DNA of 64,000 nt, from positions 1 through 64,000 of the IMG/VR virus record IMGVR_UViG_3300031251_000003; one strand, written 5' to 3'. The DNA is from a virus. The position numbers were made by a program, and so were the translations under genes. The notes beneath the pieces are model-generated. The model was not told where the DNA came from. It searched no databases and worked only from the letters and a program-made list of their open reading frames with translations. The first letter of the stretch is position 1, and each line of letters opens with the position of its first letter. Below, piece after piece: positions 3,108-45,546 of the stretch.

Positions 3108-3163
3108 ACTCTCAATTTCCTATCTCCTAAATAGATGAGAAGATCTTTTCAAGGAGGTAAGAA

Positions 3164-13162: not shown

Positions 13163-13208
13163 TCTTCAATCGAAGTTAGGTGTTGAGGTAGATTATAACG
13201 ATATTACC

Positions 13209-13237
13209 TCGACACACGACGCAATTTCTGCTATACT
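13209..13237 (+). promoter_or_regulatory. sigma-A-type promoter TCGACA-N17-TATACT (TG-extended -10)
   Basis: Followed by GGAAGGAG SD and ATG 13260. Confidence 0.6.
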
Positions 13238-13406
13238 TACAAAAACGGGAAGGAGCAACATGAACGACCAGGAGATTGGAGCTAAGGGGAATGAGCGGAT
13301 TGGGTCGATCAAGAACGTCATCGATGCCCAAGGCAATACCTCGATCTTCCGTAAGCAGAACAATGGTCGTTGGGCGCTCCTGGATAGCATGGCTGACAAA
13401 TACGAC

Positions 13407-13435
13407 TTGACAGACACTGAGAAAGGTGATATACT
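13407..13435 (+). promoter_or_regulatory. sigma-A-type promoter TTGACA-N17-TATACT, leaderless
   Basis: Consensus -35, TG-extended -10, ATG 7 nt downstream at 13443. Confidence 0.8.
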
Positions 13436-13442
13436 TAGTCCT

Positions 13443-14699: not shown

Positions 14700-14713
14700 G
14701 AACCCCTCCGGAT

Positions 14714-14750
14714 GGGGAGGTAGGGAAACCTACCTCCCCCTTCTTGATTT
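14714..14750 (+). terminator. intrinsic terminator hairpin GGGGAGGTAGG-GAAA-CCTACCTCCCC
   Basis: Perfect 11-bp stem, GAAA loop, pyrimidine/T-rich tail, just after the AAA stop. Confidence 0.75.
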
Positions 14751-14772
14751 CTCTCTGTACTTCTGATATAAT
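14744..14772 (+). promoter_or_regulatory. sigma-A-type promoter TTGATT-N17-TATAAT
   Basis: TG-extended -10; ATG 6 nt downstream. Confidence 0.7.
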
Positions 14773-14778
14773 AGGAGC

Positions 14779-23967: not shown

Positions 23968-24276
23968 ATGCGCTACAGCTTTGTGGAGTTGGAGTCTGGT
24001 GATCAAGAATATTTCGATGATGCCTACTCAGCATTTAGATTCGCCAAGGATCAAGAGCATAAGAAGAGAAACTCTGTATCATTGGTCGCTGTTGGGAAAG
24101 AGTATGACCCCGACACTATCGATGAATCTGAGTGGATTAACCTAGCAAGCGATATGACTGTCTATAGGGGTCAGATGCTTCGTCATATGATCCGCAGTTT
24201 AGACAACACAGTGGCTTGGCTAAGAACACAAATTGAAGAGCAGAGAAATGCAGCAGAAGAAGCAGGCGATTCATGA
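23968..24276 (+). CDS. hypothetical protein
   Basis: GGGAG SD. Confidence 0.65.
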   Translation: MRYSFVELESGDQEYFDDAYSAFRFAKDQEHKKRNSVSLVAVGKEYDPDTIDESEWINLASDMTVYRGQMLRHMIRSLDNTVAWLRTQIEEQRNAAEEAGDS

Positions 24277-27200
24277 AGATCTAATCAATCAGATACGAGA
24301 TAATCTCACTCCTGATTTACTAAAACCTGAGTTTCGTGACCAACCTTTCCCGGTTGGTCATTGCTATGTTAGCAGTGAAGCACTTTACCACCTACTTGGT
24401 GGCAGAGAGAGCGGCTTACGTCCAATGCGATTGCGTATGCCTGATGGTGTTGTACACTGGTGGTTGGAGACTCCCGAGGGTGAAGTAATCGATCCTACCC
24501 ATGATCAGTTCGGTGAGTCAGTCCCTTATGAGCAAGGTAAGAGCGGTGGCTTTCTAACAAGAGAGCCATCTCGTCGTGCTACGGAGCTAATGAATCGAAT
24601 TAGCTCTACTGAGTCTGATGAGCTAGCTCATAATCTCATGGACGAATTAGCCTGGGTTTCTAAAGAACGTGGTGGTCTAGATAAGTCTAACTTCTTGGGT
24701 GATGATTCTCCTGAAAGAGCAACTCCTTATGTAATTCTAAACAATCAAATGTATGTAGCTCCTAGACAATATCATTATGATCTTGCGGATTATTTAGAGA
24801 AGAAGAATGGATTTACTAGAGAACAATTGAGAGATGGCTATTGGGGATGGATTAGACCAAATGAAAATACATCTTTTGAACATTCAGATATGCTCAAGGA
24901 TAATAACTGGCATGATCCTGAGATGGTCAAGCGACTATACCCGAGTGCTATAGATATCACCAAGGCTCCGGTCGATGATGCTCCTTCCGATCCTCTAAAG
25001 GGATATGAGCAGCGTCGTAGCTCTTCCTGGAAGGAATCAGTGAATGCTCAAGGATGGATCTATGATCCGGCCACAGATAAGTTCATAACCGGTAACACAT
25101 GGCATGGTGGGCTATTAGAACAACTATTCGATAAGCCTTGGCCCTATATAGACAGAAGCGAACTAGACAAATTAGTTTATGGCTGGTTCGGACATCCGGC
25201 TAGTGGTAAAGACCCTGTAGCTATCTATTCCGATAACTTTGGATCCACTGCGACCGAAGAACAAAAACAGAGAGGATTGCAGCTAGCTAAAGAGTATTAC
25301 GAAGAAAATGCCGCTCAAAATATAGAATCTAAGGTAGCCTTCGAGACAGAACCAGATCCTCCCGATCCTGGTCATTACGTAGTGACATTCGTATACTATG
25401 CCGATGGTACACTGGAAACGGAAGTAGATCGTAGTCATGCTCACATGATCAATGAGTACATTGCACAACATGGATATGATCGTCGGGAGTTCATGTTGAA
25501 CATGATGCCCGTACTTGGATGGGTATTCTCCATAGACAACCAACTTTATGCCGTTTTCGCCTCTCAGGGATACAATGTCCAGAATAATACTCTTGAATCA
25601 GAGAGGGAAGAGACGCTAGTAGCATTGTCAAAGAGGTTCGATAAGCCTGTTCGTGAGACTGACTATCAAGAATGGATGGCTAACCAACAATGGGAAGCTA
25701 TTGTTGGTGAGTCTAGCGTTCAGAAGACGGCATTCGATCAGGCTTTCGTGTATGCTAACGATCATCTCTACGTGGCTAATAAGCCTCATCCAGCTATCAT
25801 GCGAGCTAACGGGATCGATCCAAGCACACCATTGGTAGCTGGTATCATTAAGGATACTCCAACTGGCGATGGCCCGCTCTGGATGACATTCTTCTCATGG
25901 TCACAGAACTTTGATGACCCTGAATTACAGGATCGTGCTCGTCAGGCTATAGAACATGAGTATGGTAAATTCCCCACAGAGGTAAGTTACGACGATATGG
26001 TGAAGATCGACAACGAGATCGGCCAACATCGTAATGAGATGCGTCCTCAGGCAGATAATCGTATGAATGAACGCTGGGATGACCATGAAAAAGCTTGTCC
26101 TTTCGTGTGGATGAATGGTATGGTATGGATTGGTGATGAGTTATCAGGTCATAATGGATTCGCTACAGATAGACCAGATATGTATGCCGAATGGTCAAGA
26201 CTAATGAATGAATCCGAACACACAACTTGGAGCAGGGATCAACGAGACGCTTTAATGTGGTTTGGTCGTGTCTTCCCCGATGGTGAGGTCGTAGCATGGA
26301 ATGACCAGCCGGTACCCGAAAACATACAGAATGATATTAGAAATGAAGCTCAGAAGCAAGGATTCGAGATGATGTCGGCAGCGCTTCCACACATCTATGT
26401 TGTGAATACGGGTGACAGCTACCATCAGTCTGGATTGCCCTTCATCTATGTGCCAGATAACGATGCAATTTACCTGGGCGAAACCATGGCTCCGCATATA
26501 GAGTTGATCAAGAACAATGAAGATCTCAATGGTTATGTGCGTCCTGAGGAATACACAACAGGCAACGGATACCTAGCCGGTCGAATAGATCGTAACGGTG
26601 ATGTATTGTTCTTCAACGTTCCTGGTTCGGTGTATAATCCTCAGACTGAACAGACAGTTTTGACTACACTCAAGAGTCAGTGGCCCGCGATTCAGGATCT
26701 AGATGGATTACAAGAAGAGGATGACGATCCGATCAATAACTGGCCCGGTTCTCATACATATCCAGTTCATAGTATCATCTCTAAGCTTGCTAATGAGGAA
26801 CCCGAGATCATTGTAGATCCAAGTGTGAATAATTCACATATCCCTGACTTCAATCAGATGGAAGTGATCTACATCTATGATCCGGGAACCAACAAGCTTG
26901 TCATTAGTCGTGGTCTTCATGCCGCCGCTATCCAGCAGTACTTTGGTGGGCCACGACCAGAGGATCGACAGTACGGCAACATGATAGCGGGTTACGGATC
27001 CTTGGATGCTGGTTGGGTATGTGTAACCGGCGATCTCTTGCGTAACGATTGGGTAACTGAACAGGTTGACAGAGTATTGGAGAACATAAGTTCTTCTGAT
27101 CATGTTGCCTCTGTACGGCTCATTGATATCCCTGTGACTGGACAGCAGTACGATTGGGCATGGAACAATGGTCAGCGTCCAATCCTATACCATGCACCAT

Positions 27201-30200
27201 CCGACACGCTCTACGTAGGGACACGCAATAGACACCATGGAGAGCTAATCCGTCAGATCTACAATCAAGGGCAGGCCGAGGCAGACGATTGGGATACGTT
27301 ACAGAATAACAAGGATTACCTTCTCGGCTCTGGATTGCCTTCGGGTGAAACCAAGTGGTTCACTATGAGAGATAGCGAACGCAATGCTCTGATCCCACAG
27401 GCTAACCAACAGTGGCAGGACTATTTCACTCACAGAACGGCAGAAGTTCAAGTACAAAACCCTGTGTCATACAATTACGTTCCTCTTACACCGAACGAAC
27501 TTACGGCTTTTGATTCATTGGACGAACGAAAACAAACGACATACTATCGACAGGCTCAAAGACTTAACGCTAGAGCAGAGAAAGCAGGAGTACCTGGCAA
27601 GATAAGGGGTAGAGATCTTGCGGCCCTTATGTATCGATACGATGGTCGTTGTGCTTATGATGGCACTCCTGGCGCAGATAGCTTTGATCATGTAATCCCA
27701 TTGAGCCGTGGCGGTTCTAATACAGTAGATAACCTCTTGCCTGCTCATACTCAGTGTAATGCCGAGCTAAACGATTGGGATCAGAAACTCACACCTATTC
27801 CTACAGCAATAACTCTGTCACCTGACTGGTTGAATGTACCCGCTGTAGCCAAGGTAGCTACTGTAGTTAAGGAACTGTTGTTCACTGACGATGATGTTGA
27901 CGAACGGGACGGGGACAGACATTGGGCTAAATGGTTCTACTACGCTCCAACCGATACATTGTACTGGTGGCCCACAACGAGTGAGAACGATGGTATGCCA
28001 AGTCATGCACAAGGTATTAAAGAGGCGTTCCCAGAGGAAGATTGGCTTGAGATGTGGGATTCAGGAGATCTTACCTTCGGTTACAAGACGCCAGATCAAT
28101 TATATGCATATGATTTCAATGATAGATACCCAGAGAAAGATATCCACGCTGCACAAATAGCATCAGAGTTCTTTGATATGCCCACTAATCTATCCCCAGA
28201 GAGATTCGCAAGCTCCAATAACATTCAGTTCGTTGATACCGAGGGTGGAATGTATCATGGAATGGGTTTCCCATTCCTTTACGATATTCGGGATGATATC
28301 CTCTACTTTGGTACCACTTCAACTTATCATGTACAATTGCTACAGGATATGCAAGCAAACGACCAAGATTATTACGATGATTACAAGGGGAATACTAAGC
28401 CATTGGTGGGTGGTCGCTACAATCCCGAAGAGAATCCACCAGACAGGATATATCTCTACAATTACCGCAATGATCCGATAGTATCTAATAGAATTCGTGA
28501 ATTGGTCAATGAGGCTATTCAGACTCCTGAATTTCAGCAAATCTATGAAAATGACTCCCATCATATGTCAGCTTGGAATCCTGGTGATACAGCTTGGGTA
28601 TACGATCCTGAGACAAAGCAGCTTCACTCTGGTCAATACCACGGAGAAATCATCCGTTCGATGAACCTACCGAGAGATTACAATTGGGATCAGTTTGTGT
28701 ATGGTTGGTATCCACGTACCGATGAAGAGTTTACTGACAGCTACATCGCACCTGAGTCTGTTGATCATCCTGATGAGCAGGAAGCACTCGTTGCTGCTCA
28801 AAGAGAATTCGCTAATAGAACAGCAAGGACGGCTGGTGTAGTGTATCTTGATGTACCGAGTACAGGCTTCGGTGGTATGAACCCAGAAGATACTTATCCC
28901 GCAATATATGATCCTGAGGTTGATACTTTGTATGTCGGTACTCTACCCGAGACTTCTCACGCCGAGTTGATCAGGAATAGTCCATTGGGTCACATGATGA
29001 ATGATAAGGGACACGGGTACAATATGGATCATCTAGGATTTGCATGGATCTATCCGACACAGGATCCACATGATCCTGGTTATGAGGCTGTATCATGGAC
29101 AGCAGCAATCCCGAGTAAACTATTACAAGAAGCCGTTAAAGGACTCAGAACAGGCAAGACATCTGAACGAAAGGAGGATGAAGCTCATGAACAACTACAG
29201 TTGGATACCAAGGTAGCTGAATCACAGTGGATTATGAGTGGATTCTACTGGCCCGATAACAATGCGGTTGATATATCGATGCCTGGTCAGGGTCATACTG
29301 GACTGATGGCAGAACAAGAATATACCTCCGAGTTTATGAGAAAGCAGAATTGGGTTCCGTTCCAGGTGTTCCACGATTCTCGTGACAAGTTTTACTATGT
29401 GGTCGTTGGTTCTGATTGGGTCAACGGTGGTAGTTATGATCTACCACCCGAGGGCGAAGAAGCTATCCGTGAACAGATACAGGTGAACACAGATGAACCT
29501 GTGTACTTCGAAGGAGATATGGTAACGAGCAAGGTAGCTTCTAGTGTCGAGTATGTTCATGTTCCTGAGGATCTACGTCGAGAGTGGGAACCAGATAGTA
29601 TCCGAGGAAATGCTCGTCCTTGGTTGTTAGTCAATGATACATACTATATAGGATCATTAGGAACTGGCCATGCTGAATTAGTTTATGCGGGTAATCTTCG
29701 AGATGAATCTATTGACTATAGTGACACCGGTGTTATTACAGACGCTTCTGAGCTTCTAGATATCTATGGTTATCGAAGCTATCCGATTCAAGGATCAAAG
29801 TTCTTCGTGATTCCTTTCAATGATGAAGCCCTAGCAGAAGAGTTAGCCCGACTTATGATTGACCACACAGATGAGATGATCAAGAGCACCAAGACCGCAT
29901 TACAAAATCATATTCCAAATCCCGGTTACACCGAATGGGATTCTCGTGCTGGTCGTTATGCTTGGGTTCTTCTATCTGATGGTCGAATCCTCTTTAGCAA
30001 GGAGGGTGGAAGTCATCAGTCTATTGCTGTTGATCATGAATTTGGTCGAGAATACGATTCATTTGGAAAGGGAACTACTTATGGTCAATTATTCGACAAG
30101 AATGGAGAAATTGAGGTTGAGATATTTACATTCACAGGCGGCGGGAGTAATCAGCCACCTGAAGAAATTAAGGAGAAAGTCAAAGCAGCATTCATGGATC

Positions 30201-33200
30201 ACAAGGACGACTCGTGGTATGGTAAAGTAGCTATGCCAGGTGGAGGCTATTGTTATCTCTGTTACAATGATCCAAAGATAAAGAATAAGCAAGGTATGCA
30301 TCCCGTCACTCATTGGGATTGGGTCATCGATGAACTTCACCCAGATCCTAAGCCGTCTCAGATCGGTCTATGTGATATGCATCACTGGATTCTACAGACC
30401 GAAGGTATCGATGGGTGGAAGCAGATCTTCCCTCTACGTAGACAGCCTGTTATGTCGAGCACTATCGTTGAGGTTCGCACATTAGGTAGTGCCGAGGAAG
30501 ATGTAGCTGATTCGCGGCCTATCATCTACGATCCAGAGACTGACACAATCTACATCGGCGGATATGGTGGCTATCATAGCGAACTAATGGATAGTGAAGA
30601 GATGGGCGGCAAGAACTGGCGAGGTATGGCCTTTGGTAGATTCTCTGGGTTTGATCATTTCAAGTGGTACATGAATCAGGATAGAATTCCTGATCTAGCT
30701 AACGTTGAGGAACAGATCCAGGCAGAGGCTCGTGTTCATTCTAATCTAGCGGAACAAATGGGATGGACGATTGAGGATTTAGGGCCAAGCGACCATAGCC
30801 ACGAATTACTACAATGGGATGTCGATCAAGACAGACTGGCTTGGGTCGCAGATCTAACTACCAAAACGATCTATATCGGTGAAGGTTGGATGCACCGGGA
30901 GATCTTCAAGCGAATGCTTAACATGAATATTGAACACGCCGGTGATATGAGTTTCAGCGGACTTGATGTGGATGATATCGCCGCTGGTTCCACAATGGAA
31001 GACGATCCTTCTAAGATGGAGTTCTATGAATGGGGAAAGAATTGGGATCAGTATGAACTCAATGAATTACGTGAGATCCTTCAAGATTACATAACTGATG
31101 ATCATATCAAGACAGCCGTGGAATTAGACAAGACTGAAGCTGGATGGCCCTCTGGATATGAGTGGTACACTAGCTGGTTGTATGTTCCCGATACTGGTCA
31201 GCTACTCATTAAGAACAAGCGTGATGTCAATCACACTATGTTGATTGTAGAAGAACCACAGTTAATGCAGGAGATTCGCGAAGGAGTGGAGATTGTACCT
31301 GGCTTGATTCTTAAAAACAATCATAATCAGTATGGGATACTATCGATGTACTCGGATAAATGGGATGGAAGTAATATCTTACATCCTGGGGCCAATGAGG
31401 AAGCAGTCAAGGCTGTTCAGGATTGGGCAGCAGCGAATACTCATTGGGGTGATTTACCTGTCGTAAACACCGAGGATTCACGCATTAGCTCATTCAATCA
31501 TATCAACTATGTCAATGTACCAGAATTCAATTACCACGGTGATGGAGTCCCCTGGATTCTATTGAATAATGGTGATATCTACATGGCTACCGAATCATGT
31601 TTTCACAGAGAATTGATTTGGGCAATAGACCCAGATGATAACTATAAAAATATAAGTTCAAATATAGCAGCGGCTGGTCGTGTAGAGAATGGGGTAGTGA
31701 AGACCTATTGGGGGCCGGATAGAGCCAATGTAAGTAATGAGGTATTACGTGCGCTCAAAGAAGGAGCATTGAATGAAGATGAACGAGGTAAGATAGCTAC
31801 AGTGGTAGATGACTTGAGTAGTCAATTCCCGGCGTCGGCATCAGAAGCTGAAGAACCATGGTCATACTGGAAGTATATTTATGACAATGATACAGATACC
31901 CTGCACGTATGGAAAACCAAGTATGAGGATGGTGATCCTATACATGCGGCAGCCTTCCGTGAGATCTTTGGCCCGGATACTTACAATCATAATTTCAGAA
32001 ATAGTGAAGCACGCTTTGCATGGGGGCATGGTTATGAAAATGGTTATGAGCTTTATGGTCATCACAGTACTCCCGATGTAAACGCTCATGCTGAAGCAGC
32101 CCTAGCTTACTTCATCAATAGTTTTCAGCAAGAGACTAGCAAGACGGCTGGTGAGTATACTCCCATGGTCAAGGGTATCCGTGGTCGATGGATCTTACTC
32201 CACGATGGAACTGTGTTGAGTGACGATGATCCAGGGACGATACACGCTCAGATTCTATTAGACAATGGAGCAACACCGGATCAGATAAAGGATATTGGAT
32301 TCGATGATGTCAGTCTGCGGAAGTACATTGATAACTATTACACATTCTATAACAATGTAAAGCAGGATCAAGAGCGCCAGCGTAATAGCTCAACTGATCA
32401 GTGGGACAACATCCAGCCTGTCGATGATTCTTGTTACCTCGTTGCTGCTGATCTCTCTCATGAGTACCCAGAATTGCATTATGAAGCTGGTCAATATGGT
32501 GATCAGGGCGAACATGCGTGGCTACGAATGGATGATGGAACAATCATTGATCCTACTCACGGTCAGTATGATGAGAGCAAGCCGATGAATATTGTCAAGC
32601 CCAATGATCCAGCCCAGAAACTGTATAAGTCGTGGGCTACTAATCCTAACATGACTACTGATTGGAATAATTACCCAGAAGAGTTTATGGATGATCCCGA
32701 TGATCCATTACACTGGTTATTTAGAGGAAAGCCAGGTCATCCTCATTCTGGCCCCGATGAGTTTGATGGAGCAATGGCTCCCAAGACGGCAGGCTGGGAA
32801 CAACAGCAGCTTAACCCCGACGCTCAGTATATATGGGTAAGAGGTAATAAAACCACAGTAGCGGCACCAACATGGTACTCTCATGGCTCATTGATCCAGT
32901 GGCTTCGAGATCATAATGAAGAACCATTATCCACGGGCAATATGTCATTGGGTAAGGACTTACCCGCTAATACTGTCGTGCTTCTATGGGAGGATGATGA
33001 GACAGGTGATAAATACTCAAAGGCAAGCTCAACTGTCACGGTACGAGATGATCCTCATCCCAAGAGCTTTATCTGGACATACGATGTGAACAAGGATCAT
33101 TTCACGGTAGGCAATCGTGACTGGTATCACACACGCTACTGGCCATCTACTGATGGTGGTGTAGTGTGCGGTGGTGTGAATCCCGATGGAGTGTGGAGCT

Positions 33201-36200
33201 ATGATGACTCCACCAATAAGACTACACCATCCGAAGCGAAAGCATTGATGCAGAATCTATTGGATCAAGGACTTCAAGAACAACTAACCAACAAAACGAG
33301 CGCTGTGGTTCCCAATCCTACAGAACCGTGGAATGATCCAGCATGGTTGAAGCAATGGCAGGATAGAGAGGACGAAGGAGGATTCTATGGTGATCATCGT
33401 GAGATCGCTAATCCTTATATCCCGTTCTTGGTCATGGAAGATGGCAGAACCTGGATAGGCTGGGACTATGCTTCACATGCATATGAATGGATGGTCGATG
33501 AAGCAGAAGAAGAGTTGAATATTGATTACAATGCAATGAAGGATTCACAAGGATCTATCAACTTCGCGGATCAAGAGTATGAAGTTCACTGGCCCAATCA
33601 TGGATTGCATAGAGAGCTAGAACAACAGATCGTAACCGAGATAGTCAATGATGTAGAGGATGAACGCAAGCGGGCATTCGAACGGGGTAGATTGGATGAC
33701 AAGACAGCATGGGTAAAGACGGCGACACGAGTGGACGTATCTAATCCCGAGGATCTAACACAATGGCGCTGTGGTTTATGGGTATACGATGAGAAACAGG
33801 ATCACTTGGTCTTGGCCCCGTATTTCTCACACTATCCGTTTCATGCCAAGCTGATCCGAGACTACATGTGGGACTTCGAACCCAATGATCGAGACTATGA
33901 GGCTCTAGTAGCTGGACAATGGTGGCTCAGAAACAACGACTTGGTTGTGGCCGAAATATACCCGGATGATAATGAAATTGAAGGGCCAATGAAAGATATG
34001 ATCGAGGGCTACATTAGTGAACATCTACAGACAGAGACAACGGCTGGATTGAATGGTGATCTACCCGACAACCTGCGGAACATTCCTTTAACAGAGAACG
34101 AAGGATGGTGGGGAACATACATCACCGATGTACCCGTGAGTACCGATAGACTGAGTAGAGATGTACTAACGACTTCCCCCACTCCACTCTCCAGACGTGA
34201 TGAGCAACTGACTCACAGGAATTCGGCATATATAAACACACATGAAAGTCAAGGCTTGACATACACTTCAAGTTATGCATCGGATCCAACAACCCCGCAT
34301 GAATACACAAGTAATATAACATCTGCCCTAGGGCTAGACACCATGCGGCACACTAACACCCCTATAGGCAAGTACCCCCACCAAGGTTGCCCCTCTAGGG
34401 TACCCCCGTGGCATAAAAGAGAGTACCTTTCCGCAAATGGAGAGGTTCCAGAGGTCGAGGACACAGGGGCAAGAACCGCAAGTGATACCCCTTGGTGGGT
34501 AGTGGCAGAGCCAGGGGAGGAACCGAACCAAATAGCATGGGTGGCGGATCTGAACACAAGAACGGTCTATGTAGGCGAATGGCATGGAGAGATCTTCAAG
34601 TCCCTCATGGGCCTCAACTACGATCACACAACGGATGAACAAGCGGAAGAAACACCCAATCTTGCCACGGGAAGAAGCTGGACACAGTTCTACGGAACCG
34701 AAATGAGCAGGGAACAAATAAAAGAGATGCTTCAAGCCATCCACGATTACTACGAACAAAGAGCCTACCATTTTTCTACAGATATTTTCCCCAGGGTTGA
34801 GGACATCCAGGCTTCCCCTAACAGCAAGTTAACGGCTCTATTCGAGGATATCAACGGTACGACGGCCTTTGCATGGAGTCCCGAACAACTCATTCAGGGC
34901 CACAATCATCGTTTCATTATCATGAAGATCCGAGATCAGGGGCTGGATCCCAATGACTTCACCTACGGATGGAAGAATGGAGATCACTTCTATATCCATT
35001 CATGGGATCATCAGGACTTCCAGGCCGAACATCAGATACTTGAGTGCAAGAAGGCTTTAGAGGCGATGGGACTCCACGATGAGGATGGGCCTTCCTTCCA
35101 GGACACTGGTAAGGTCACCGGTACACTTGAGCAACAGATTCACCCAGGTTGGGGAGGACAATCGCTTATCTATTTCCGGGGAAAACAGTATAGCGCCCCG
35201 ACTCATGCCCAGAATTTCAGAAAGCTTATTGGCGATGGAGCCTCATCGGAAGAGATCCTCCATGAAGGTATCCCCGGTGCCCGTTACTTGGATCCAGGTG
35301 CACAGAGACGTATAGGGAAAGTGGCGGCAATAAACGAAATTCCAGTAGAAACAGCGGGGATGCATCCATGGGGAGATGAACCCTTTATCTACTATGCACC
35401 GACCAATACTGTGTATGTTGCAACAAAATCGGGAAGGCATGGAGACATCATGCGCTGGATACAGGATCACGACCCGGAAACGTTCGCCCTGATTACCGAT
35501 AGGAGCACGGGATTGGACGCTTTCAAGAATATCTTCTATGGAGAATTCGTTCCTTTACATGAATGGAGGGGAGAAGTGGAGTCCGGGGAGATAGATTACT
35601 TCACCGCGAGCGGTTCAAGGTTGACATCCGATGAGGTACCGGAGGAACTCAAGCAATGGGCCGAAGCCCGTTGGGGCAATGTCACATCCAAAGTAATAGA
35701 GTCTCATCCGAGTCTCCATATCGTGGACGTAGATAACTACAGTAGTAGGATTGAAGGGCTTGAGCGTCCTGTATTACAACGGGAAGGCGATTCTAATCTC
35801 TATGTTGGACTGTATGGTGGAGGGCATTGGGATCTAGCTAGTGTCGCTGGTATTCCTTTTGATAATATTTTAACACAAGGATGGATCGATGAAAGTGGAG
35901 AGTTTAACGCTTATTCGATAACCACAGAGGCTTACGATACACTGGAAAATGCAGGATATAACCCAGTCAGTAAAAATTGGGAAAGAACAATCGAAGATAA
36001 AGTAGAGTCTCATTTATCGGGTATCCAACTCACCCAACCCAATGAACCAAGGGATATTGATAATCCCGGTGTTAGGTGGATAAAGACCCAGGATGGAACC
36101 TACTACACCGATGAAGAGGAACCGGTCATGACTCATGCCCATCTAGTTCACCGCTACAAGATTCCCTTGGATAAGATAGTCGATGTAGGCGTGGACGATG

Positions 36201-38386
36201 ATAGCCTCTGGAAATACTATAGCGGTTGGTATCAGAACCATCTACCCACAGACTTTATAGAGTCTCATAAAACAGCTACTCAACTAATACCCATTGATTT
36301 GGACGATTCATCTTGGCATTCCGAACCCGCTTGGATCTATGATCCTAATAAGGATCTTCTTTACGTTTCTACCGGAGCCAGTCACCACGCAAGACTTTTC
36401 CATAGTATCCTTGGAGATGACTACGGAGACACAGATGCGATGAAGACCGGTTGGATCGATCTGGATAACAACTATGTAGCCTTTGTTGACGAGGATGAAG
36501 AATCGGCATTCGCGAACAATATCACGGCCATATTCTCTCGTTATTACGATAGGGAAATGAAGCCCATTGATGGAAATACTTGGATGGCCAAGTATGGATC
36601 AATAGAGTCTCATAAACAGGGTGCCAACATAGGGGAACCTGACCCGAACAATCAAGGGAAGTTCATGGAAGGCAGTCAGCCATTTATTTACTACAATGGC
36701 GATTTCTATTGGGGTAAGGGCGCTGAACACCATCCCGATATTCTACGAACTAACATGCTTTATGGTAAGACTCCATTATTAGCTGGTTGGGTTAACTTTC
36801 GCAAGAAAGAAATCGGTCTATGGTCGGGGAACGTTACACAGGATCGTACCATCGAAGATGAGGTAGCCCGACAACTACAAGAGCAGTTCCCGGATTTCGC
36901 TATAGATAAAGGCTTTCGTTTAGGGGCGGTAACCTCTTGGAAGATCGAGGTTCTCCCCGAATCGACTGGACGGAGAATAGATGACAGAGTAGCCTGGGTA
37001 GCAGATCAGGATTCTCATACAATCTATATCGGGGATGGTTGGTTCCATGGAGATATCTTCAAGCAGATTGGAGAATTAAATGTTGATCATGCCGGAGATT
37101 TACATTGGAGACAAGACAAAACATCAGCATTATTGGCAGGAAGTATCTGGAAGAATAACATCTTACTCTACGGAAAATCGGGTGAATGGAACCCGTCTGA
37201 TGAGGCAGAAGTCTACGACACTATAAAGGACTGGTATCGGGAAGAAAGGAGCGAAGATGTGTCCACCCATCAGCTTCCAAATGTCCACGCAATGTACCAA
37301 CAAAGTCGAGTGATGGATATCGATGATCCGATCAACGGTAGACCACAAGAAAAGCCCTTCAGTTTCATCTACTACAACGGCGATGTATTCGTTGGATACC
37401 TCCACACTCACCCGATGCTTGTCTCCGATATGGCGGGTATGGGAATTAAGATATTAGATAAAGCCAACACAGCGGCGGGTTGGGTAGATACAGCTAATCG
37501 AGTAGGTATGTTCTACTCCTTTGAACAGCAATGGCTAAATCGTAGTAGTGAAGAAATCCAGCAGATTCAAGCCAACGAAGAAGATGCCAAGAGGCAGTTG
37601 GAGTCATGGGTACCGGGATTGGAATGGGTAAACCCCAATGATTATCTCAGACGAACCACAGCAACAGAGTGGAACTACCAGAGTGCTTTCTGGTATAGCC
37701 CTAGAACGGGACTACTCACAGGTAAAGCTGCCCACTGGCAGCTAATCGGGGATGCTCTAGCTAATCTCCCCTACGAAGAACGAGAAACTATAATGCAGCA
37801 TTCTTACTTGGGTTGGATCTTCGAGTCCGAGGGAGGCAAAGAGAAGGTAGCCGTTCCTGCATCAGTGGAACACAACCTTGACCCTACTCTTGAAGAAGAG
37901 GCTAGAGAGGCTTTGAAACAAGAGGGAATCACCCTAGGTGATCCACAACCGGGGATGTTCCAGTTCGATAGCGAAGATTATCCCGCTGAAGACTATCATC
38001 TTGGACGTTTAGCAACTGAAGTAGTCGATATTCCCGAAGTTGAAGAGGAAGACTATCAAGAAAGAACCCGTAGGAAGCCTTTTGTCTACAGTCCGAGGGA
38101 AGATAAGCTCTATATTGGCCCTTATGGGAGTCATCATGTGGAATTAATCTGGAAAGCATTCGGAATGAATGATGATCCTTCGACCCCTGGTTTCGACGCC
38201 AGAGAGGAAATAGCGATGAATATCGAGGACGATCCGGGCAATCTTGGGGTTATTTTGGTAGATCAGGTCACAAATGCACCATATTTAGTACATTGTTTCG
38301 GTGATCCGAGCGATAAATGCCTCGAAGCCTTGCGTTCTACCTTCCCCGGTGTTAGAATAGAAGACGAGAACTGTGAGGTTATCTAA
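24248..38386 (+). CDS. giant (~4,700 aa) modular polyprotein: ~37 His-containing repeat modules, 2 transglutaminase/papain-like domains, HNH nuclease, zinc finger
   Basis: Uninterrupted 14-kb ORF (ATG 24248; TTG 24233 alternative); repeated (P)F/W-I-Y-x-P-x-x-D-x-L-Y-I/V-G...H-x-x-L/I...G-W/R-I modules separated mostly by K/R-x-A. Confidence 0.9.
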   Translation: MQQKKQAIHEDLINQIRDNLTPDLLKPEFRDQPFPVGHCYVSSEALYHLLGGRESGLRPMRLRMPDGVVHWWLETPEGEVIDPTHDQFGESVPYEQGKSGGFLTREPSRRATELMNRISSTESDELAHNLMDELAWVSKERGGLDKSNFLGDDSPERATPYVILNNQMYVAPRQYHYDLADYLEKKNGFTREQLRDGYWGWIRPNENTSFEHSDMLKDNNWHDPEMVKRLYPSAIDITKAPVDDAPSDPLKGYEQRRSSSWKESVNAQGWIYDPATDKFITGNTWHGGLLEQLFDKPWPYIDRSELDKLVYGWFGHPASGKDPVAIYSDNFGSTATEEQKQRGLQLAKEYYEENAAQNIESKVAFETEPDPPDPGHYVVTFVYYADGTLETEVDRSHAHMINEYIAQHGYDRREFMLNMMPVLGWVFSIDNQLYAVFASQGYNVQNNTLESEREETLVALSKRFDKPVRETDYQEWMANQQWEAIVGESSVQKTAFDQAFVYANDHLYVANKPHPAIMRANGIDPSTPLVAGIIKDTPTGDGPLWMTFFSWSQNFDDPELQDRARQAIEHEYGKFPTEVSYDDMVKIDNEIGQHRNEMRPQADNRMNERWDDHEKACPFVWMNGMVWIGDELSGHNGFATDRPDMYAEWSRLMNESEHTTWSRDQRDALMWFGRVFPDGEVVAWNDQPVPENIQNDIRNEAQKQGFEMMSAALPHIYVVNTGDSYHQSGLPFIYVPDNDAIYLGETMAPHIELIKNNEDLNGYVRPEEYTTGNGYLAGRIDRNGDVLFFNVPGSVYNPQTEQTVLTTLKSQWPAIQDLDGLQEEDDDPINNWPGSHTYPVHSIISKLANEEPEIIVDPSVNNSHIPDFNQMEVIYIYDPGTNKLVISRGLHAAAIQQYFGGPRPEDRQYGNMIAGYGSLDAGWVCVTGDLLRNDWVTEQVDRVLENISSSDHVASVRLIDIPVTGQQYDWAWNNGQRPILYHAPSDTLYVGTRNRHHGELIRQIYNQGQAEADDWDTLQNNKDYLLGSGLPSGETKWFTMRDSERNALIPQANQQWQDYFTHRTAEVQVQNPVSYNYVPLTPNELTAFDSLDERKQTTYYRQAQRLNARAEKAGVPGKIRGRDLAALMYRYDGRCAYDGTPGADSFDHVIPLSRGGSNTVDNLLPAHTQCNAELNDWDQKLTPIPTAITLSPDWLNVPAVAKVATVVKELLFTDDDVDERDGDRHWAKWFYYAPTDTLYWWPTTSENDGMPSHAQGIKEAFPEEDWLEMWDSGDLTFGYKTPDQLYAYDFNDRYPEKDIHAAQIASEFFDMPTNLSPERFASSNNIQFVDTEGGMYHGMGFPFLYDIRDDILYFGTTSTYHVQLLQDMQANDQDYYDDYKGNTKPLVGGRYNPEENPPDRIYLYNYRNDPIVSNRIRELVNEAIQTPEFQQIYENDSHHMSAWNPGDTAWVYDPETKQLHSGQYHGEIIRSMNLPRDYNWDQFVYGWYPRTDEEFTDSYIAPESVDHPDEQEALVAAQREFANRTARTAGVVYLDVPSTGFGGMNPEDTYPAIYDPEVDTLYVGTLPETSHAELIRNSPLGHMMNDKGHGYNMDHLGFAWIYPTQDPHDPGYEAVSWTAAIPSKLLQEAVKGLRTGKTSERKEDEAHEQLQLDTKVAESQWIMSGFYWPDNNAVDISMPGQGHTGLMAEQEYTSEFMRKQNWVPFQVFHDSRDKFYYVVVGSDWVNGGSYDLPPEGEEAIREQIQVNTDEPVYFEGDMVTSKVASSVEYVHVPEDLRREWEPDSIRGNARPWLLVNDTYYIGSLGTGHAELVYAGNLRDESIDYSDTGVITDASELLDIYGYRSYPIQGSKFFVIPFNDEALAEELARLMIDHTDEMIKSTKTALQNHIPNPGYTEWDSRAGRYAWVLLSDGRILFSKEGGSHQSIAVDHEFGREYDSFGKGTTYGQLFDKNGEIEVEIFTFTGGGSNQPPEEIKEKVKAAFMDHKDDSWYGKVAMPGGGYCYLCYNDPKIKNKQGMHPVTHWDWVIDELHPDPKPSQIGLCDMHHWILQTEGIDGWKQIFPLRRQPVMSSTIVEVRTLGSAEEDVADSRPIIYDPETDTIYIGGYGGYHSELMDSEEMGGKNWRGMAFGRFSGFDHFKWYMNQDRIPDLANVEEQIQAEARVHSNLAEQMGWTIEDLGPSDHSHELLQWDVDQDRLAWVADLTTKTIYIGEGWMHREIFKRMLNMNIEHAGDMSFSGLDVDDIAAGSTMEDDPSKMEFYEWGKNWDQYELNELREILQDYITDDHIKTAVELDKTEAGWPSGYEWYTSWLYVPDTGQLLIKNKRDVNHTMLIVEEPQLMQEIREGVEIVPGLILKNNHNQYGILSMYSDKWDGSNILHPGANEEAVKAVQDWAAANTHWGDLPVVNTEDSRISSFNHINYVNVPEFNYHGDGVPWILLNNGDIYMATESCFHRELIWAIDPDDNYKNISSNIAAAGRVENGVVKTYWGPDRANVSNEVLRALKEGALNEDERGKIATVVDDLSSQFPASASEAEEPWSYWKYIYDNDTDTLHVWKTKYEDGDPIHAAAFREIFGPDTYNHNFRNSEARFAWGHGYENGYELYGHHSTPDVNAHAEAALAYFINSFQQETSKTAGEYTPMVKGIRGRWILLHDGTVLSDDDPGTIHAQILLDNGATPDQIKDIGFDDVSLRKYIDNYYTFYNNVKQDQERQRNSSTDQWDNIQPVDDSCYLVAADLSHEYPELHYEAGQYGDQGEHAWLRMDDGTIIDPTHGQYDESKPMNIVKPNDPAQKLYKSWATNPNMTTDWNNYPEEFMDDPDDPLHWLFRGKPGHPHSGPDEFDGAMAPKTAGWEQQQLNPDAQYIWVRGNKTTVAAPTWYSHGSLIQWLRDHNEEPLSTGNMSLGKDLPANTVVLLWEDDETGDKYSKASSTVTVRDDPHPKSFIWTYDVNKDHFTVGNRDWYHTRYWPSTDGGVVCGGVNPDGVWSYDDSTNKTTPSEAKALMQNLLDQGLQEQLTNKTSAVVPNPTEPWNDPAWLKQWQDREDEGGFYGDHREIANPYIPFLVMEDGRTWIGWDYASHAYEWMVDEAEEELNIDYNAMKDSQGSINFADQEYEVHWPNHGLHRELEQQIVTEIVNDVEDERKRAFERGRLDDKTAWVKTATRVDVSNPEDLTQWRCGLWVYDEKQDHLVLAPYFSHYPFHAKLIRDYMWDFEPNDRDYEALVAGQWWLRNNDLVVAEIYPDDNEIEGPMKDMIEGYISEHLQTETTAGLNGDLPDNLRNIPLTENEGWWGTYITDVPVSTDRLSRDVLTTSPTPLSRRDEQLTHRNSAYINTHESQGLTYTSSYASDPTTPHEYTSNITSALGLDTMRHTNTPIGKYPHQGCPSRVPPWHKREYLSANGEVPEVEDTGARTASDTPWWVVAEPGEEPNQIAWVADLNTRTVYVGEWHGEIFKSLMGLNYDHTTDEQAEETPNLATGRSWTQFYGTEMSREQIKEMLQAIHDYYEQRAYHFSTDIFPRVEDIQASPNSKLTALFEDINGTTAFAWSPEQLIQGHNHRFIIMKIRDQGLDPNDFTYGWKNGDHFYIHSWDHQDFQAEHQILECKKALEAMGLHDEDGPSFQDTGKVTGTLEQQIHPGWGGQSLIYFRGKQYSAPTHAQNFRKLIGDGASSEEILHEGIPGARYLDPGAQRRIGKVAAINEIPVETAGMHPWGDEPFIYYAPTNTVYVATKSGRHGDIMRWIQDHDPETFALITDRSTGLDAFKNIFYGEFVPLHEWRGEVESGEIDYFTASGSRLTSDEVPEELKQWAEARWGNVTSKVIESHPSLHIVDVDNYSSRIEGLERPVLQREGDSNLYVGLYGGGHWDLASVAGIPFDNILTQGWIDESGEFNAYSITTEAYDTLENAGYNPVSKNWERTIEDKVESHLSGIQLTQPNEPRDIDNPGVRWIKTQDGTYYTDEEEPVMTHAHLVHRYKIPLDKIVDVGVDDDSLWKYYSGWYQNHLPTDFIESHKTATQLIPIDLDDSSWHSEPAWIYDPNKDLLYVSTGASHHARLFHSILGDDYGDTDAMKTGWIDLDNNYVAFVDEDEESAFANNITAIFSRYYDREMKPIDGNTWMAKYGSIESHKQGANIGEPDPNNQGKFMEGSQPFIYYNGDFYWGKGAEHHPDILRTNMLYGKTPLLAGWVNFRKKEIGLWSGNVTQDRTIEDEVARQLQEQFPDFAIDKGFRLGAVTSWKIEVLPESTGRRIDDRVAWVADQDSHTIYIGDGWFHGDIFKQIGELNVDHAGDLHWRQDKTSALLAGSIWKNNILLYGKSGEWNPSDEAEVYDTIKDWYREERSEDVSTHQLPNVHAMYQQSRVMDIDDPINGRPQEKPFSFIYYNGDVFVGYLHTHPMLVSDMAGMGIKILDKANTAAGWVDTANRVGMFYSFEQQWLNRSSEEIQQIQANEEDAKRQLESWVPGLEWVNPNDYLRRTTATEWNYQSAFWYSPRTGLLTGKAAHWQLIGDALANLPYEERETIMQHSYLGWIFESEGGKEKVAVPASVEHNLDPTLEEEAREALKQEGITLGDPQPGMFQFDSEDYPAEDYHLGRLATEVVDIPEVEEEDYQERTRRKPFVYSPREDKLYIGPYGSHHVELIWKAFGMNDDPSTPGFDAREEIAMNIEDDPGNLGVILVDQVTNAPYLVHCFGDPSDKCLEALRSTFPGVRIEDENCEVI
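35697..36613 (+). repeat. four identical 11-bp repeats TAGAGTCTCAT (35697, 36003, 36258, 36603) at module junctions
   Basis: Read directly; encode I/V-E-S-H. Confidence 0.8.
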
Positions 38387-40233
38387 TGTTGACGACACGT
38401 AGGCCAGTAATCCCACCTAAAGGCGGTGTAGCTTATTGCTACCTCGATGGGAACATTTACTATGAGACAGAAGGATCTCATATGGAACTCGTACGACAGA
38501 TGCTTGACCAGGGGATTCCTAGATCAGCACTCGATGCATACGATCCGGGGTACAGCGCCATCTTTGGTTATATCTGGAATACAAGTGATACAGAAGAACC
38601 AAAATATGTAAATGATCAATACTCTGATATCTACTCTAACACGAAGGATCCACAGAAGACAGCGGAACTGAATTCTAAGTTACGTGCTTTATTTCCAGAC
38701 ATCACAACAGACACCAGTGGCCCTTACTTCGAGCCAGTAAAATGGACATTGAGCCACATTTCTGATACAATAGATCCAATGTCCGATATGACACCTATTG
38801 AGACGGCTATCCAAGGAGAACCTGCGGCTTCCATGGCTATTCGTGCGCTGAATCAAGCAGGCGGACGGGTATTTGTCGTTGGTGGTGCAGTTCGCGATGC
38901 CATCCTGGGTCACGCACCCAAGGACGTAGATCTCATGGTTCAAGGTCTGGATGGCGATGCTATCGAGAATGCGCTTAAGGGTCTGGGTAGACTGGACTTT
39001 ACGGGCAAGCAGTTCGGTGTGTATCGCTTCAAGAGTGGAACCTCTGAGGTAGAGATTGCTCTGCCCAGGACTGAGGTTTCTACTGGCCCTGGCCACCAGG
39101 ATTTTCAGGTTACCACAGATCCTAACTTGGATCCCGAGCAGGATCTGGCCAGGAGAGATTTCACCGGTAACGCTATGGCATATGAGCCTGCAACCGGTCA
39201 ACTCATCGACCCTTACGGCGGTGCAGAGGATCTTAAGAATGGTACTTTGTCACTTGTAAATGACAAGGCATTCGAGGATGACCCTCTCCGTGTCGTTCGT
39301 GCATTGGTTGCTAATGCGCGGTTCGGCCTTGAGCCGGATGAGCAGCTTAAGCAATCACTGGCCGATAACGCTCAGAAGATCAAGCATCTTCCGGGTGAGA
39401 GAATTCAGGCAGAGCTTGATAAGCTCCTGTCTGCCCCTGACCCTGCTAAGACGATCAGCCTTGCGGAGCAGAGTGGTCTGATCCCGTATCTGTTCCCTGA
39501 GCTAGAGGCGGCTGTTGGATTCGATCAGCACAATCCTCACCACGATATGAACGTCTTCGATCACACTTTGTCGGTGCTGAAGAAGATGTCTACACTTAGC
39601 AACGATCCTGATATGAGACTCGCTGCGCTGTTCCACGACTCCGGTAAGCCCGAGTCGTACTGGAATGACGAAAATCACGGTGGCAACGGTGGTGGCCACT
39701 TCTACAAGAAGGTACTCCACGACGGAACTGTCATTGGTGCCGACCACGAGGATGTGGGCGCACGTAACGTTCGGGCATTCATGACGAGGATGCGTTACCC
39801 TAAGGATCGTATCGACCGTGTAGAGAAGCTGATCAAGTTCCATATGTGGAACTACTTCAACTCCGAGAAGGGAGCGAGGAAGTTCCTCCGTGCTCTGGAC
39901 GGCGATACCAAGATGGCCTTTGATCTTCTGGCTATCCGCGAAGCCGATTCAAGTGGTAAAAGAGACGGAGAGCCGAACAACTACGATAGAGAGATGATCG
40001 ACAAGGATCGTCAACTACTCCAAGATGTAATTGCTGGTCATGATGCCGGTGAACAGCACGCATTCACGATTAAAGATCTGGCCGTCAATGGTCACGATCT
40101 GATCTCTCTTGGTCTAAAAGGCCCGGAAATTGGTAAAACTCTGAACTATCTGCTCGATCTGGTCATTGATCATCCTGCTCTGAATGAGAAGGAAACACTC
40201 ATGAAAGTAGTCGATGAGGGTGTCCGGGTATAA
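38386..40233 (+). CDS. cca: CCA-adding tRNA nucleotidyltransferase with HD domain and N-terminal His-module
   Basis: VGGAVRD...KDVDL, DLARRDFT.NAMA, EDDPLRVVRA, ERIQAEL, HT...LFHDSGK. Confidence 0.92.
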   Translation: MLTTRRPVIPPKGGVAYCYLDGNIYYETEGSHMELVRQMLDQGIPRSALDAYDPGYSAIFGYIWNTSDTEEPKYVNDQYSDIYSNTKDPQKTAELNSKLRALFPDITTDTSGPYFEPVKWTLSHISDTIDPMSDMTPIETAIQGEPAASMAIRALNQAGGRVFVVGGAVRDAILGHAPKDVDLMVQGLDGDAIENALKGLGRLDFTGKQFGVYRFKSGTSEVEIALPRTEVSTGPGHQDFQVTTDPNLDPEQDLARRDFTGNAMAYEPATGQLIDPYGGAEDLKNGTLSLVNDKAFEDDPLRVVRALVANARFGLEPDEQLKQSLADNAQKIKHLPGERIQAELDKLLSAPDPAKTISLAEQSGLIPYLFPELEAAVGFDQHNPHHDMNVFDHTLSVLKKMSTLSNDPDMRLAALFHDSGKPESYWNDENHGGNGGGHFYKKVLHDGTVIGADHEDVGARNVRAFMTRMRYPKDRIDRVEKLIKFHMWNYFNSEKGARKFLRALDGDTKMAFDLLAIREADSSGKRDGEPNNYDREMIDKDRQLLQDVIAGHDAGEQHAFTIKDLAVNGHDLISLGLKGPEIGKTLNYLLDLVIDHPALNEKETLMKVVDEGVRV

Positions 40234-43395: not shown

Positions 43396-45546
43396 GTGAT
43401 GAATTCAGTAAAGAGCAACGTCTTTGATCCCATCCAACCTAACTTAGATCAAGTTATATTTAATGGCACGGATCTTAGGCCAAGTGTAAACAAATTTGTC
43501 CAAAAGATCTACTATCATGCCCTGAATCGTAAGCTTGGTGTGACGGGTAGGGATTGGGCACACCTGTATCTCACTGGCAGCCTAACAACTTACCAGTATT
43601 CGGCTACTTCTGATGCCGACCATAGTGTTTTCCCTGACTATGACAGAATTTGGAAGCATCTCAATATAGATCCGCATGATGCTCGTGTCATGTTGGTAGA
43701 GATGTCTATCGATTACCTAGATGGTATCTTCATTCCCGGAACCCTTCATCCTATCCAGTTCTTTGTCGAGAGTCCAGGGGTTGTACCGACTGATAAGTTT
43801 CGCCCAGGACTCAGATCTGCATATGATCTTTTGGATCGAGAGTGGTTTGTAAAACCAGAAAAGGAACGAGCACACAGCGTACAGGATGAATGGCCGGATG
43901 TCTATGAACGAGCTTCAGAGATAGCCGACAAGATGACTACTATGCTTGATTCTGGTAACTACGATGCGGCTCAGAACCTGTGGATTACAGTACACAAGAA
44001 GCGACAATTGGATCAGCAGGCCGATCTAGGAGATTTCTCTGAAGGCAACATCACCCTCAAGCTACTCTTGAATCGTGGCCTTATTGATCGTCTCAGAAAT
44101 GAAGTTGGATTGAAAATCCAGACTAAGGTAGGAACTCTCTATAATCCTTTGGATTCAAATAGGTTTAAGGCGGTGTTTGCCTTTGGTTATGATCCTGAGT
44201 CTGATACATTAGTGGCTGACAGAACTCATTACAGTGTCGTAAAAGAACTTATAGGGAAACTTGGTGCTCCCAAAGAAGATACTCGTGGTTTTGCAATGAG
44301 GATAAAACCCGTGCTAGGCTGGGTCTATCAGGACTACAATACAGGAGATCATGCACCAGATTGGAAAGTTGAGTTTGCCTCAGATCTCTATGACCAACAG
44401 GCTGGCTGGTCTGAAGCAAGGAATCAGCAGGCTCTAGAAGCCCTCCAACGAGAGAACCCTAACGCTAACATCACGTATGCGGGCCAGAGCGATTACAAGA
44501 ACCCAGATGATACCTATGAGTATCACGAAGCTACTCTCCACACAAGTATGCCGCCGTGTTGGCAGGCACCACAGTTCTTCGAGGATTATCAGAAGAGCTA
44601 TACACCTGAAGTAGGGGAAACTACAGAGGTTAGAGGCTATGATTGGGAAGTTGATTATGCCCGACTCTTCAAGCTTATTCACATGAAGACCTGGCCGCTA
44701 AAGAACATCGACGTAAGATTACTAACCCCGGAACACAAGGACTGGAACCAAATTTATGGGTATTACGAAAACGGCAAGATCTGGATCCATCCGTTCCTAA
44801 CTGCTGCTGAGGCTAGTGAAACTCTCTGGCACGAGATCCAGCATCAGTATCAGGATCAAGAAAAACGAAGACAATACTACAACTACAACGTCCCAAGGCG
44901 TAATTTCGATTATGATGTATCTGAGGAAGAACATGATCCTAGTCAATATGAAGAGCATCCCGACGAGATAGACGCAAATATGTTTGCTCAATTCATGAAT
45001 ATGGGAGAGCAAGCTTCTACGTTCTTGGTTGTGCCTATGCCGCCCAAGTACGATCCAACCTGGGTTCCCAGAGAACTACACCTGGATCGAGGCGAGTGGG
45101 ATGAACAGAACGAACTCTATGCCTTAACCCCGGAACAACTCAAGTCCGAAGAAGACGCACAGGTAAAGCTCTTCCGTACCGACTACAGTTTTTGGCAAGA
45201 GACTTGGGTTTCCGAAGAGAACTTTAGATGGAGTATCGTTGCTGCATTACCAGAGCTTTGGGAAGATCGAGTAACGACCAAGGTTATCTGGGATTGGGAC
45301 AAGGATCGTATCATCCTTGGGACAATGGCTTCATTGCCACAACTGCCTAACTCCAAGATAGTAGGAGAATACCATGACGGCAGGGTCACCTTGTTTGAAG
45401 CCGAGAAGCAATGGATCTCTCCTGTGTATTTCCGACGGCTCTGGCATAGTTCTTATCCTGATAAGGAACTGAAGGATGTTTACTTCCGTCGAGGTACGGG
45501 AGATGAGTATAAGTTGAGAAGTCTACCAAGGAAGCGAAATGTCTAA
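43396..45546 (+). CDS. multidomain protein: Pol-beta-type nucleotidyltransferase + His-module + HExxH zincin-like domain
   Basis: LYLTGSLTTYQYSATSDAD (hG[S]x9DxD); FGYDPESDTLV...THY...LGWV; LWHEIQH...E. Confidence 0.8.
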   Translation: MMNSVKSNVFDPIQPNLDQVIFNGTDLRPSVNKFVQKIYYHALNRKLGVTGRDWAHLYLTGSLTTYQYSATSDADHSVFPDYDRIWKHLNIDPHDARVMLVEMSIDYLDGIFIPGTLHPIQFFVESPGVVPTDKFRPGLRSAYDLLDREWFVKPEKERAHSVQDEWPDVYERASEIADKMTTMLDSGNYDAAQNLWITVHKKRQLDQQADLGDFSEGNITLKLLLNRGLIDRLRNEVGLKIQTKVGTLYNPLDSNRFKAVFAFGYDPESDTLVADRTHYSVVKELIGKLGAPKEDTRGFAMRIKPVLGWVYQDYNTGDHAPDWKVEFASDLYDQQAGWSEARNQQALEALQRENPNANITYAGQSDYKNPDDTYEYHEATLHTSMPPCWQAPQFFEDYQKSYTPEVGETTEVRGYDWEVDYARLFKLIHMKTWPLKNIDVRLLTPEHKDWNQIYGYYENGKIWIHPFLTAAEASETLWHEIQHQYQDQEKRRQYYNYNVPRRNFDYDVSEEEHDPSQYEEHPDEIDANMFAQFMNMGEQASTFLVVPMPPKYDPTWVPRELHLDRGEWDEQNELYALTPEQLKSEEDAQVKLFRTDYSFWQETWVSEENFRWSIVAALPELWEDRVTTKVIWDWDKDRIILGTMASLPQLPNSKIVGEYHDGRVTLFEAEKQWISPVYFRRLWHSSYPDKELKDVYFRRGTGDEYKLRSLPRKRNV

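Follow-up and report, generated by a model that had tools for sequence, protein, structure and literature searches.

A giant phage protein carrying about 30 diverged copies of a histidine-containing domain

Organization of the giant open reading frame

We analyzed a 64-kb stretch of phage DNA (the window), which opens a virus record of 158,106 bp rated complete by CheckV. The window contains a single giant ORF (24233-38386), in which about 30 copies of one small domain (the module) are combined with two YunG-family domains and an HNH nuclease. The encoded protein, computed from the translation, is acidic (pI 4.62) and has a mass of 540 kDa. The features of the ORF are as follows.

24233-38386, + strand: giant ORF, 4,717 aa from TTG 24233 or 4,712 aa from ATG 24248
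24287-24622, + strand: YunG-family N-terminal domain, aa 19-130 (phrog_12251, E 2.4e-26; motifs GHCYV, HWWLE and DPTHDQ)
24704-27484, + strand: module array part 1, 8 units, aa 158-1084 (HMM)
27530-27787, + strand: HNH endonuclease domain, aa 1100-1185 (PF01844, E 3.7e-6; several HNH PHROGs down to E 7e-10)
27914-32167, + strand: module array part 2, 10 confident units and 1 marginal unit, aa 1228-2645 (HMM)
32435-32737, + strand: second, shorter YunG-like domain (HAWL...DPTHGQY), aa ~2735-2835 (BLASTP against the N-terminal domain, E 2e-6; alignment)
32813-34057, + strand: module array part 3, 3 confident units and 1 marginal unit (HMM)
34070-34507, + strand: Ser/Thr/Pro-rich stretch without module, aa ~3280-3425 (direct reading; matches no family)
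34520-38380, + strand: module array part 4, 9 confident units and 1 marginal unit, aa 3430-4716 (HMM)
35697-36613, + strand: 11-mer TAGAGTCTCAT, four exact in-frame copies (..ESH..) at four consecutive module junctions
36248-36652, + strand: unit used for the better structural model, aa 4006-4140

The giant ORF is a genuine phage gene. An identical 4,712-aa protein is present in a public protein collection. Likeness between module copies at the DNA level was recognizable in just one pair (70% over 117 nt), which argues that the copies are old and that the array is not an assembly artefact. Megablast and tblastn comparison of the region with 50,697 phage records gave no match, and a scan of the whole giant protein against IMG/VR returned no close relative.

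In a language-model search, the N-terminal domain scored 0.96 to the YunG family, with 25 of 30 matches in YunG clusters. The Cys, His-W-W-L and D-P-T-H motifs of the YunG domain, as we read them, resemble those of transglutaminase-like Cys-His-Asp peptidases. Reading of the translation also revealed a Cys/His-rich stretch between units of array part 2 (aa ~2000-2070), and the Ser/Thr/Pro-rich stretch that precedes array part 4 is probably disordered.

Orthologous giants differ in length and in their embedded enzymes, and their interiors are shuffled. The N-terminal YunG domain is the best-conserved part (~70% identity), and the last unit of the giant has ~45% identity in the orthologues. A marginal, atypical module-like region in array part 3 (33287-33757, aa ~3019-3175) has 55% identity in two of the orthologues, far above the conservation of ordinary units.

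The module is highly diverged around one histidine and one glycine

An initial annotation of this DNA, made by eye from the reading frame, described a long chain of ~37 diverged copies of a module with an aromatic β-hairpin, a His in every copy followed by a helix, and a later G-W/R/Y-I strand. A loose regular expression for the hairpin yielded 15 usable seeds. The resulting HMM detected 26 units in a first pass (iE<0.01), 11 of them not among the seeds, and converged on 30 confident and 3 marginal units (iE 0.18-0.26) of 75-120 aa each. An HMM of the wider family, built mostly from units of other proteins, detects 27 units in the giant. The chain of His-containing copies is therefore real, and the original figure was a slight overcount for which the HMM substitutes 30-33.

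The individual elements of that description also held. An alignment of 31 rows (29 giant units and two copies from neighbouring genes) has the hairpin consensus (P)[FW][IV]Y-D-P-x-[TN]-[DN]-T-[LIV]-[YH]-[IV]-G. The His is invariant, and the motif H-x-[DE]-[LI] opens a predicted helix. The later strand holds the second conserved residue, a Gly present in more than 90% of the rows and followed by [RWY][IV]. The units are as diverged and as acidic as had been noted, with 10-24% identity to the reference unit, a median pI of 4.6 and net charges of -1 to -16.

The same pattern extends across the family. Of 825 units drawn from 150 listed family proteins, ~100% retain the His and 98% the Gly, and the remaining conserved positions are those of the hairpin, turn residues and core hydrophobics. 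Only these two polar positions are near-invariant across the module, and the rest of its surface appears essentially free to diverge. With ~100% conservation over 825 otherwise very diverged copies, the His offers a clear point of entry for experimental work.

The module defines a phage family absent from the domain databases

A unit profile searched against 1.84 billion representative proteins matched 188 at E<=1e-3 and 61 at E<=1e-10. This search, which had been proposed along with the initial annotation, thus delineates a specific family. Nearly all of the 188 proteins are multi-copy and many are giants of 2,400-4,900 aa; module arrays make some of the largest phage proteins known. As far as seen, the family is confined to phage-type contigs.

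The view that the module belongs to no named family was borne out. Among 149 units, no Pfam family was recurrent even at E<=10, and the module had no match in the annotated PHROGs or in NCBIfam; it represents a domain family missing from all three collections. Profile searches of PDB sequences gave nothing significant. The top match, the 'structural protein' of the Weissella toxin complex (NTNH-like; 8c8g_B), came up at E 0.26, and was dropped because the match looked motif-like and the protein appeared in no fold search. A language-model search with one unit returned weak matches only (scores <=0.85), mostly to zinc-peptidase clusters, which we took as noise from the H-x-E-L motif since the module lacks HExxH.

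Two further resemblances concern the hairpin region. The GIY-YIG hairpin likewise has an ..IY..x(7-8)..Y[IV]G β-hairpin followed by a helix. The Pfam GIY-YIG model, however, matched none of the 149 units, and the conserved columns of the module include no GIY-YIG-type Arg or Glu. On fold, Slx1 matched the module model at a Foldseek E of 2.5. DUF2283 gave a faint, 13-residue match to the hairpin, below the cut-off.

The module is an autonomous domain that recurs on RNA-repair enzymes

Four module-bearing genes lie downstream of the giant ORF, with other ORFs interspersed. They were detected with the family HMM, which had been built without the other genes of the window.

38431-38718, + strand: module at the N-terminus of a CCA-adding enzyme (gene 38386-40233; family HMM E 5.9e-6)
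44122-44508, + strand: module in the middle of ORF 43396-45546 (family HMM E 1.5e-8)
46639-46890, + strand: marginal module at the N-terminus of ORF 46633-49614 (iE 0.025; motifs FVWADGKLGFG, HHKDIL and VAGQFI)
51557-52054, + strand: PEP-utiliser phospho-His swivel domain (GGAASHAVVVAR; PF00391, E 1.2e-13) followed by a partial module (E 3.9e-5), in ORF 49856-52096

The partial module in the last of these spans the His helix to helix a2 of the predicted fold (see below). The protein has 746 aa, and its N-terminal 560 aa match no family.

Related contigs, which we designate by L numbers, carry the module in several further architectures. The CCA enzymes of L001 and L002 have the same N-terminal module. 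L003 has four consecutive multi-unit genes and encodes a 1,882-aa multi-unit protein with a 2',5' RNA ligase/LigT match, and multi-unit genes are also found in L004 and L009. L005, a 41-kb soil phage contig, has ~18 separate small single-module ORFs of 63-284 aa. It also carries a CCA-adding enzyme and a fusion of the module to a 2H/LigT domain. Some of the single-module genes of L005 (1-21116) look truncated after helix a1.

We surveyed 247 non-module regions of family members, which contain few named partners. These were PolyA_pol/CCA (3), LigT (2), cREC (1, plus a cREC_REC in P0003 found separately), RNA ligase (1), HNH (4), GNAT (4), YunG (4), PcfJ (3), PEP-utilisers (1) and zinc ribbons (several). 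The inter-module regions of relatives also include a Cas12f1-like TNB match (E 3.4e-7) in two members and PcfJ-like matches in three.

The CCA enzyme is linked to module genes beyond these fusions. Its gene lies directly after the giant gene or within two genes of it in the window, L001, L002 and L013, and in L005/L006 it is two genes away from a gene with 3 units. A single lineage of ~155-165-kb phages with shared neighbours (for example, a metallophosphoesterase and DUF2201) accounts for most of these contigs, so the linkage is real and its instances are not independent.

Phage CCA-adding enzymes have been considered in the context of RNA repair (PMC7824862). The recurrent partners of the module, namely CCA, RNA ligase, 2H and cREC, are those of phage tRNA/RNA-repair sets (T4 Pnkp/Rnl type; CCA enzymes), whereas none of the described repair systems has the module or a giant array. 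The module is thus used in three ways: alone, on tRNA-repair enzymes, and in arrays of up to ~30 copies. A unit matches no known structural repeat family or fold (Ig-like, Big, FN3, collagen-like and others). Single-domain proteins, attachment to unrelated enzymes and the lack of a repeat-family match bear out the earlier judgement that this is not a structural repeat, and support an autonomous functional domain instead.

Small, acidic and fast-diverging units with a conserved core and a variable surface could also be diversified protein binders. Each unit would then act, in the manner of an immunity protein, as inhibitor or adaptor of its own host target (a nuclease, toxin or defence protein), and the His and Gly would do no more than hold the scaffold together. 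The shuffled interiors of the orthologous giants fit such a role, as do paralogue arrays in early-type regions, one of them beside an Apyc1 anti-Pycsar gene. Inhibitors, however, would not need fusion to repair enzymes, and a purely structural role seldom fixes a His in ~100% of 825 units. We regard this alternative as distinctly unlikely.

The predicted fold places the histidine at a helix N-terminus

Single units were modelled and submitted to fold searches, as had been suggested for resolving the nature of the module. A model of the unit at aa 1446-1540, based on the 31-row alignment, has a pLDDT of 77 and the topology b-b-a-b-a. A better model, of the unit at aa 4006-4140, was obtained with a 149-row family alignment (pLDDT 84.4, pTM 0.77) and has the topology b0-b1-b2-a1-b3-b4-a2-b5-a3. 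Both models agree in placing the invariant His as the first residue of helix a1. The predicted domain core would accordingly comprise b0-b1-b2-a1-b3-b4-a2-b5, with the His at the a1 N-cap and the Gly in b3.

The fold searches gave no confident match. Shape searches of BFVD (Foldseek) and the ESM Atlas returned nothing convincing, the best being DUF5674 (TM 0.51) for the first model. The match that recurred as best was human phosphohistidine phosphatase PHPT1 (Foldseek rank 1, E 0.17). The PHPT1 fragment used to build an alignment for comparison is identical to 2ai6_A residues 7-84. In PHPT1/Janus (PF05005, Ocnus), the catalytic His stands at the N-terminus of helix 1, like the His of the module.

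Sequence comparison with PHPT1 gave a mixed picture. The hhalign comparison of the module with the PHPT1 alignment had a probability of 1.4% (P 0.037); the PHPT1 alignment is low in diversity, and widening the profile search added vertebrate sequences only. The best pairing aligns the Gly of LYxG with G46 and the H-x-[DE]-[LI] motif with H-A-D-I, so that the invariant His coincides with His53; the invariant Gly falls on G77, in the GGGR loop. We take His53 to be the catalytic residue of PHPT1. The PF05005 model found nothing in the genome at E<=10, and was absent among the families matched by the 149 units at that threshold.

The phosphate-binding residues are mostly not retained. Lys21, Arg45 and Arg78 are invariant in the PHPT1 alignment. 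In the 825 units, module positions 29 and 39, the counterparts of Lys21 and Arg45, are I/V/L (the pairing of position 29 with Lys21 lies outside the hhalign-aligned stretch and follows motif order), and position 70, equivalent to Arg78, is W in 23%, R in 20% and Y in 13%. PHPT1 is, moreover, a single-domain eukaryotic enzyme, whereas the module is an acidic domain carried by phages and repeated up to ~30 times in one chain.

We read the models as a PHPT1-like arrangement, with the His and Gly at an equivalent site. The odds that this likeness reflects genuine homology are roughly even, and PHPT1 chemistry in most copies is unlikely. A stronger version would make the module a genuine, if very divergent, P-N or phosphoester hydrolase of the PHPT1/Janus type. 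The giant would in that case line up ~30 erasers of phospho-His, phosphoramidate or RNA-end phosphate, each surface-tuned to its substrate. With them the phage would strip phospho-His signals of the host (two-component, PTS) or the intermediates in which defence or repair enzymes are covalently bound to a nucleotide. The module behind the phospho-His swivel domain of the phage itself (ORF 49856-52096) would be a built-in example. We consider this version improbable. The juxtaposition of a phospho-His carrier and a PHPT1-like domain in that ORF is nevertheless a lead worth testing, and our literature search found no description of a PHPT1-like domain in phages.

Linker motifs and the possibility of processing

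The junctions between units contain short recurring motifs. Within array part 4, the 11-mer TAGAGTCTCAT occurs at 35697, 36003, 36258 and 36603, at spacings of 255-345 nt (4 observed, 0.09 expected). It could be a recombination or slippage substrate for the gain and loss of modules, or a conserved linker signal. Motifs of the form [KR]-[TVIL..]-[AS] lie 9-25 residues upstream of a unit start in ~20 of 35 occurrences, and fall in the low-confidence stretch of the model before b0.

These motifs raise the possibility that the giant is processed into single units. It would be a polyprotein precursor whose exposed linkers ([ST]-K-[TV]-A and/or ..ESH..) are cut, either by the prohead protease or by the YunG-like Cys-His-Asp domains of the giant itself, to release ~30 small proteins. 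In other phages the units have genes of their own, the giant has two built-in YunG-like domains with Cys, His and Asp motifs, and a K-L-A is found at residues 17-19 of the major head protein. Yet K-V-A and the b0 strand also precede the module within the stand-alone proteins of L004 and L005, so the motif may belong to the fold. Family-wide, the linker motif is weak (K 21%, A 25%). The YunG domain matched no peptidase family, so that protease activity is solely our reading of its motifs. Such processing is a credible but unlikely reading; it is compatible with the function that we favour below.

The K-L-A of the major head protein (60171-60230), which is of the type seen in the giant's linkers, may itself be a maturation cleavage site.

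Position of the giant gene between portal and head genes

The major head protein (60171-61139) shares ~50% identity with its counterparts in Mycobacterium phages Phabba and Myrna and in Gordonia phage Skog. It is preceded by a head maturation protease fusion (57251-59539), and a portal homologue lies at 149,099-151,216 of the genome. With the contig read as circular across its ends, the portal and head genes are separated by ~69 kb, an interval filled with accessory genes, among them the giant and the CCA enzyme. The corresponding distance in Phabba is 11 kb, and ThyX and an RNA ligase are encoded there. Since accessory genes fill the portal-head interval, non-virion ones included, position alone is no proof of a virion component.

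Polyvalent proteins of phages and conjugative elements are very large chains of unrelated enzymatic domains (HNH, GNAT, 2H, nucleotidyltransferases) and uncharacterised ones, and their genes lie close to late genes (Iyer et al., 2017; PMC5512222). The giant is likewise multi-activity (YunG, HNH and the module), and its relatives add GNAT, RNA ligase, cREC, LigT and PcfJ. Polyvalent proteins, however, combine 2-15 different domains (PMC5512222), whereas the giant repeats one domain ~30 times. The module matches no Pfam family, the LPD domains included if Pfam contains them.

By this analogy, the giant and the module-tagged enzymes could be virion-delivered cargo, packed in the capsid and ejected with the DNA, with the module as a foldable bead or packaging tag for storing and threading chains, and the His structural. 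The mixture of disparate enzyme domains matches the polyvalent pattern (PMC5512222). The gene lies between the portal (149.1 kb of the genome) and the protease and major head protein (57-61 kb), and heads a run of five large module-bearing genes; a common tag on unrelated enzymes also resembles a targeting domain. Against cargo, genes that are clearly not of the virion also occur between portal and head, in this genome as in Phabba (ThyX, RNA ligase), and the neighbours of the module genes of L005 and L007 are small ORFs of early type and not virion genes. Neither a MuF or other portal-binding domain nor a zincin peptidase was found in the giant or in the non-module regions of its relatives. 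A packaging tag would also leave the ~100% conservation of one His unexplained. We therefore judge delivery as cargo unlikely, if worth keeping in view.

A proposed role in tRNA/RNA-damage counter-defence

From the repeat anatomy, family, architectures, synteny and predicted fold described above, we infer tentatively, and at somewhat less than an even chance, that the module is an autonomous domain with a His-Gly pocket, connected with tRNA/RNA-repair counter-defence and fused into a polyvalent giant. The giant joins ~30 paralogous copies of this α/β domain of ~100 aa with the two YunG-family domains and the HNH nuclease. On this proposal, the His-Gly site would form a small pocket from a helix N-terminus and a Gly loop, of the PHPT1-like kind suited to a phosphoryl group. 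All units may recognize the same phosphorylated or anionic group, or process it slowly, and the variable surface of each would set its partner. Array and enzyme fusions would act jointly in phage counter-defence against tRNA/RNA damage.

The pocket is suggested by the conservation of the His (~100%) and Gly (98%) over 825 units and by the catalytic His of PHPT1 at the aligned position. The repair role is suggested by the partners (CCA-adding enzyme, 2H/LigT, RNA ligase and cREC) and by the CCA linkage. Against the pocket and repair reading, the PHPT1 link is statistically weak. Two near-invariant polar positions are few for an enzyme, and the strong acidity of the units argues against direct RNA binding.

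The initial annotation had proposed a ligand-binding or catalytic repertoire, which fits an autonomous domain with a conserved His and Gly amid a diverging surface and PHPT1 as its best fold match. Its more specific suggestion of nucleotide-signal sponges or anti-defence decoys fared less well; nothing points specifically to them, and the identifiable partners are tRNA/RNA repair enzymes and a phospho-His domain. In a sponge array, many pocket-bearing copies would offer high capacity for sequestering immune second messengers, cyclic nucleotides or others, and the giant gene of a relative does lie near an Apyc1 gene. The module nevertheless has no similarity to known sponges or to PHROG-annotated anti-defence families, just two invariant polar positions, and an acidic surface unfavourable for anionic nucleotides, and its gene context favours RNA repair instead. 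We consider a sponge array very improbable.

If the PHPT1 link is true, the module would be the first branch of that fold in phages, and in the prokaryote world, and would suggest that phage counter-defence involves phospho-His or RNA-end chemistry. Should the link not hold, the module is still an unexplained, strongly expanded accessory component of Myrna-like phages of ~160 kb.

Other genes of the window

A MoxR-type AAA ATPase and a DUF2201 metallopeptidase/VWA-like protein are encoded in succession at 13137-16299. On the related contig L011, DUF2201 is again encoded close to the giant gene. The ORF at 52523-55045 encodes an 840-aa protein with several zinc-ribbon matches (TFIIB-type, Lar and IS1595-type) and no other recognized domain.
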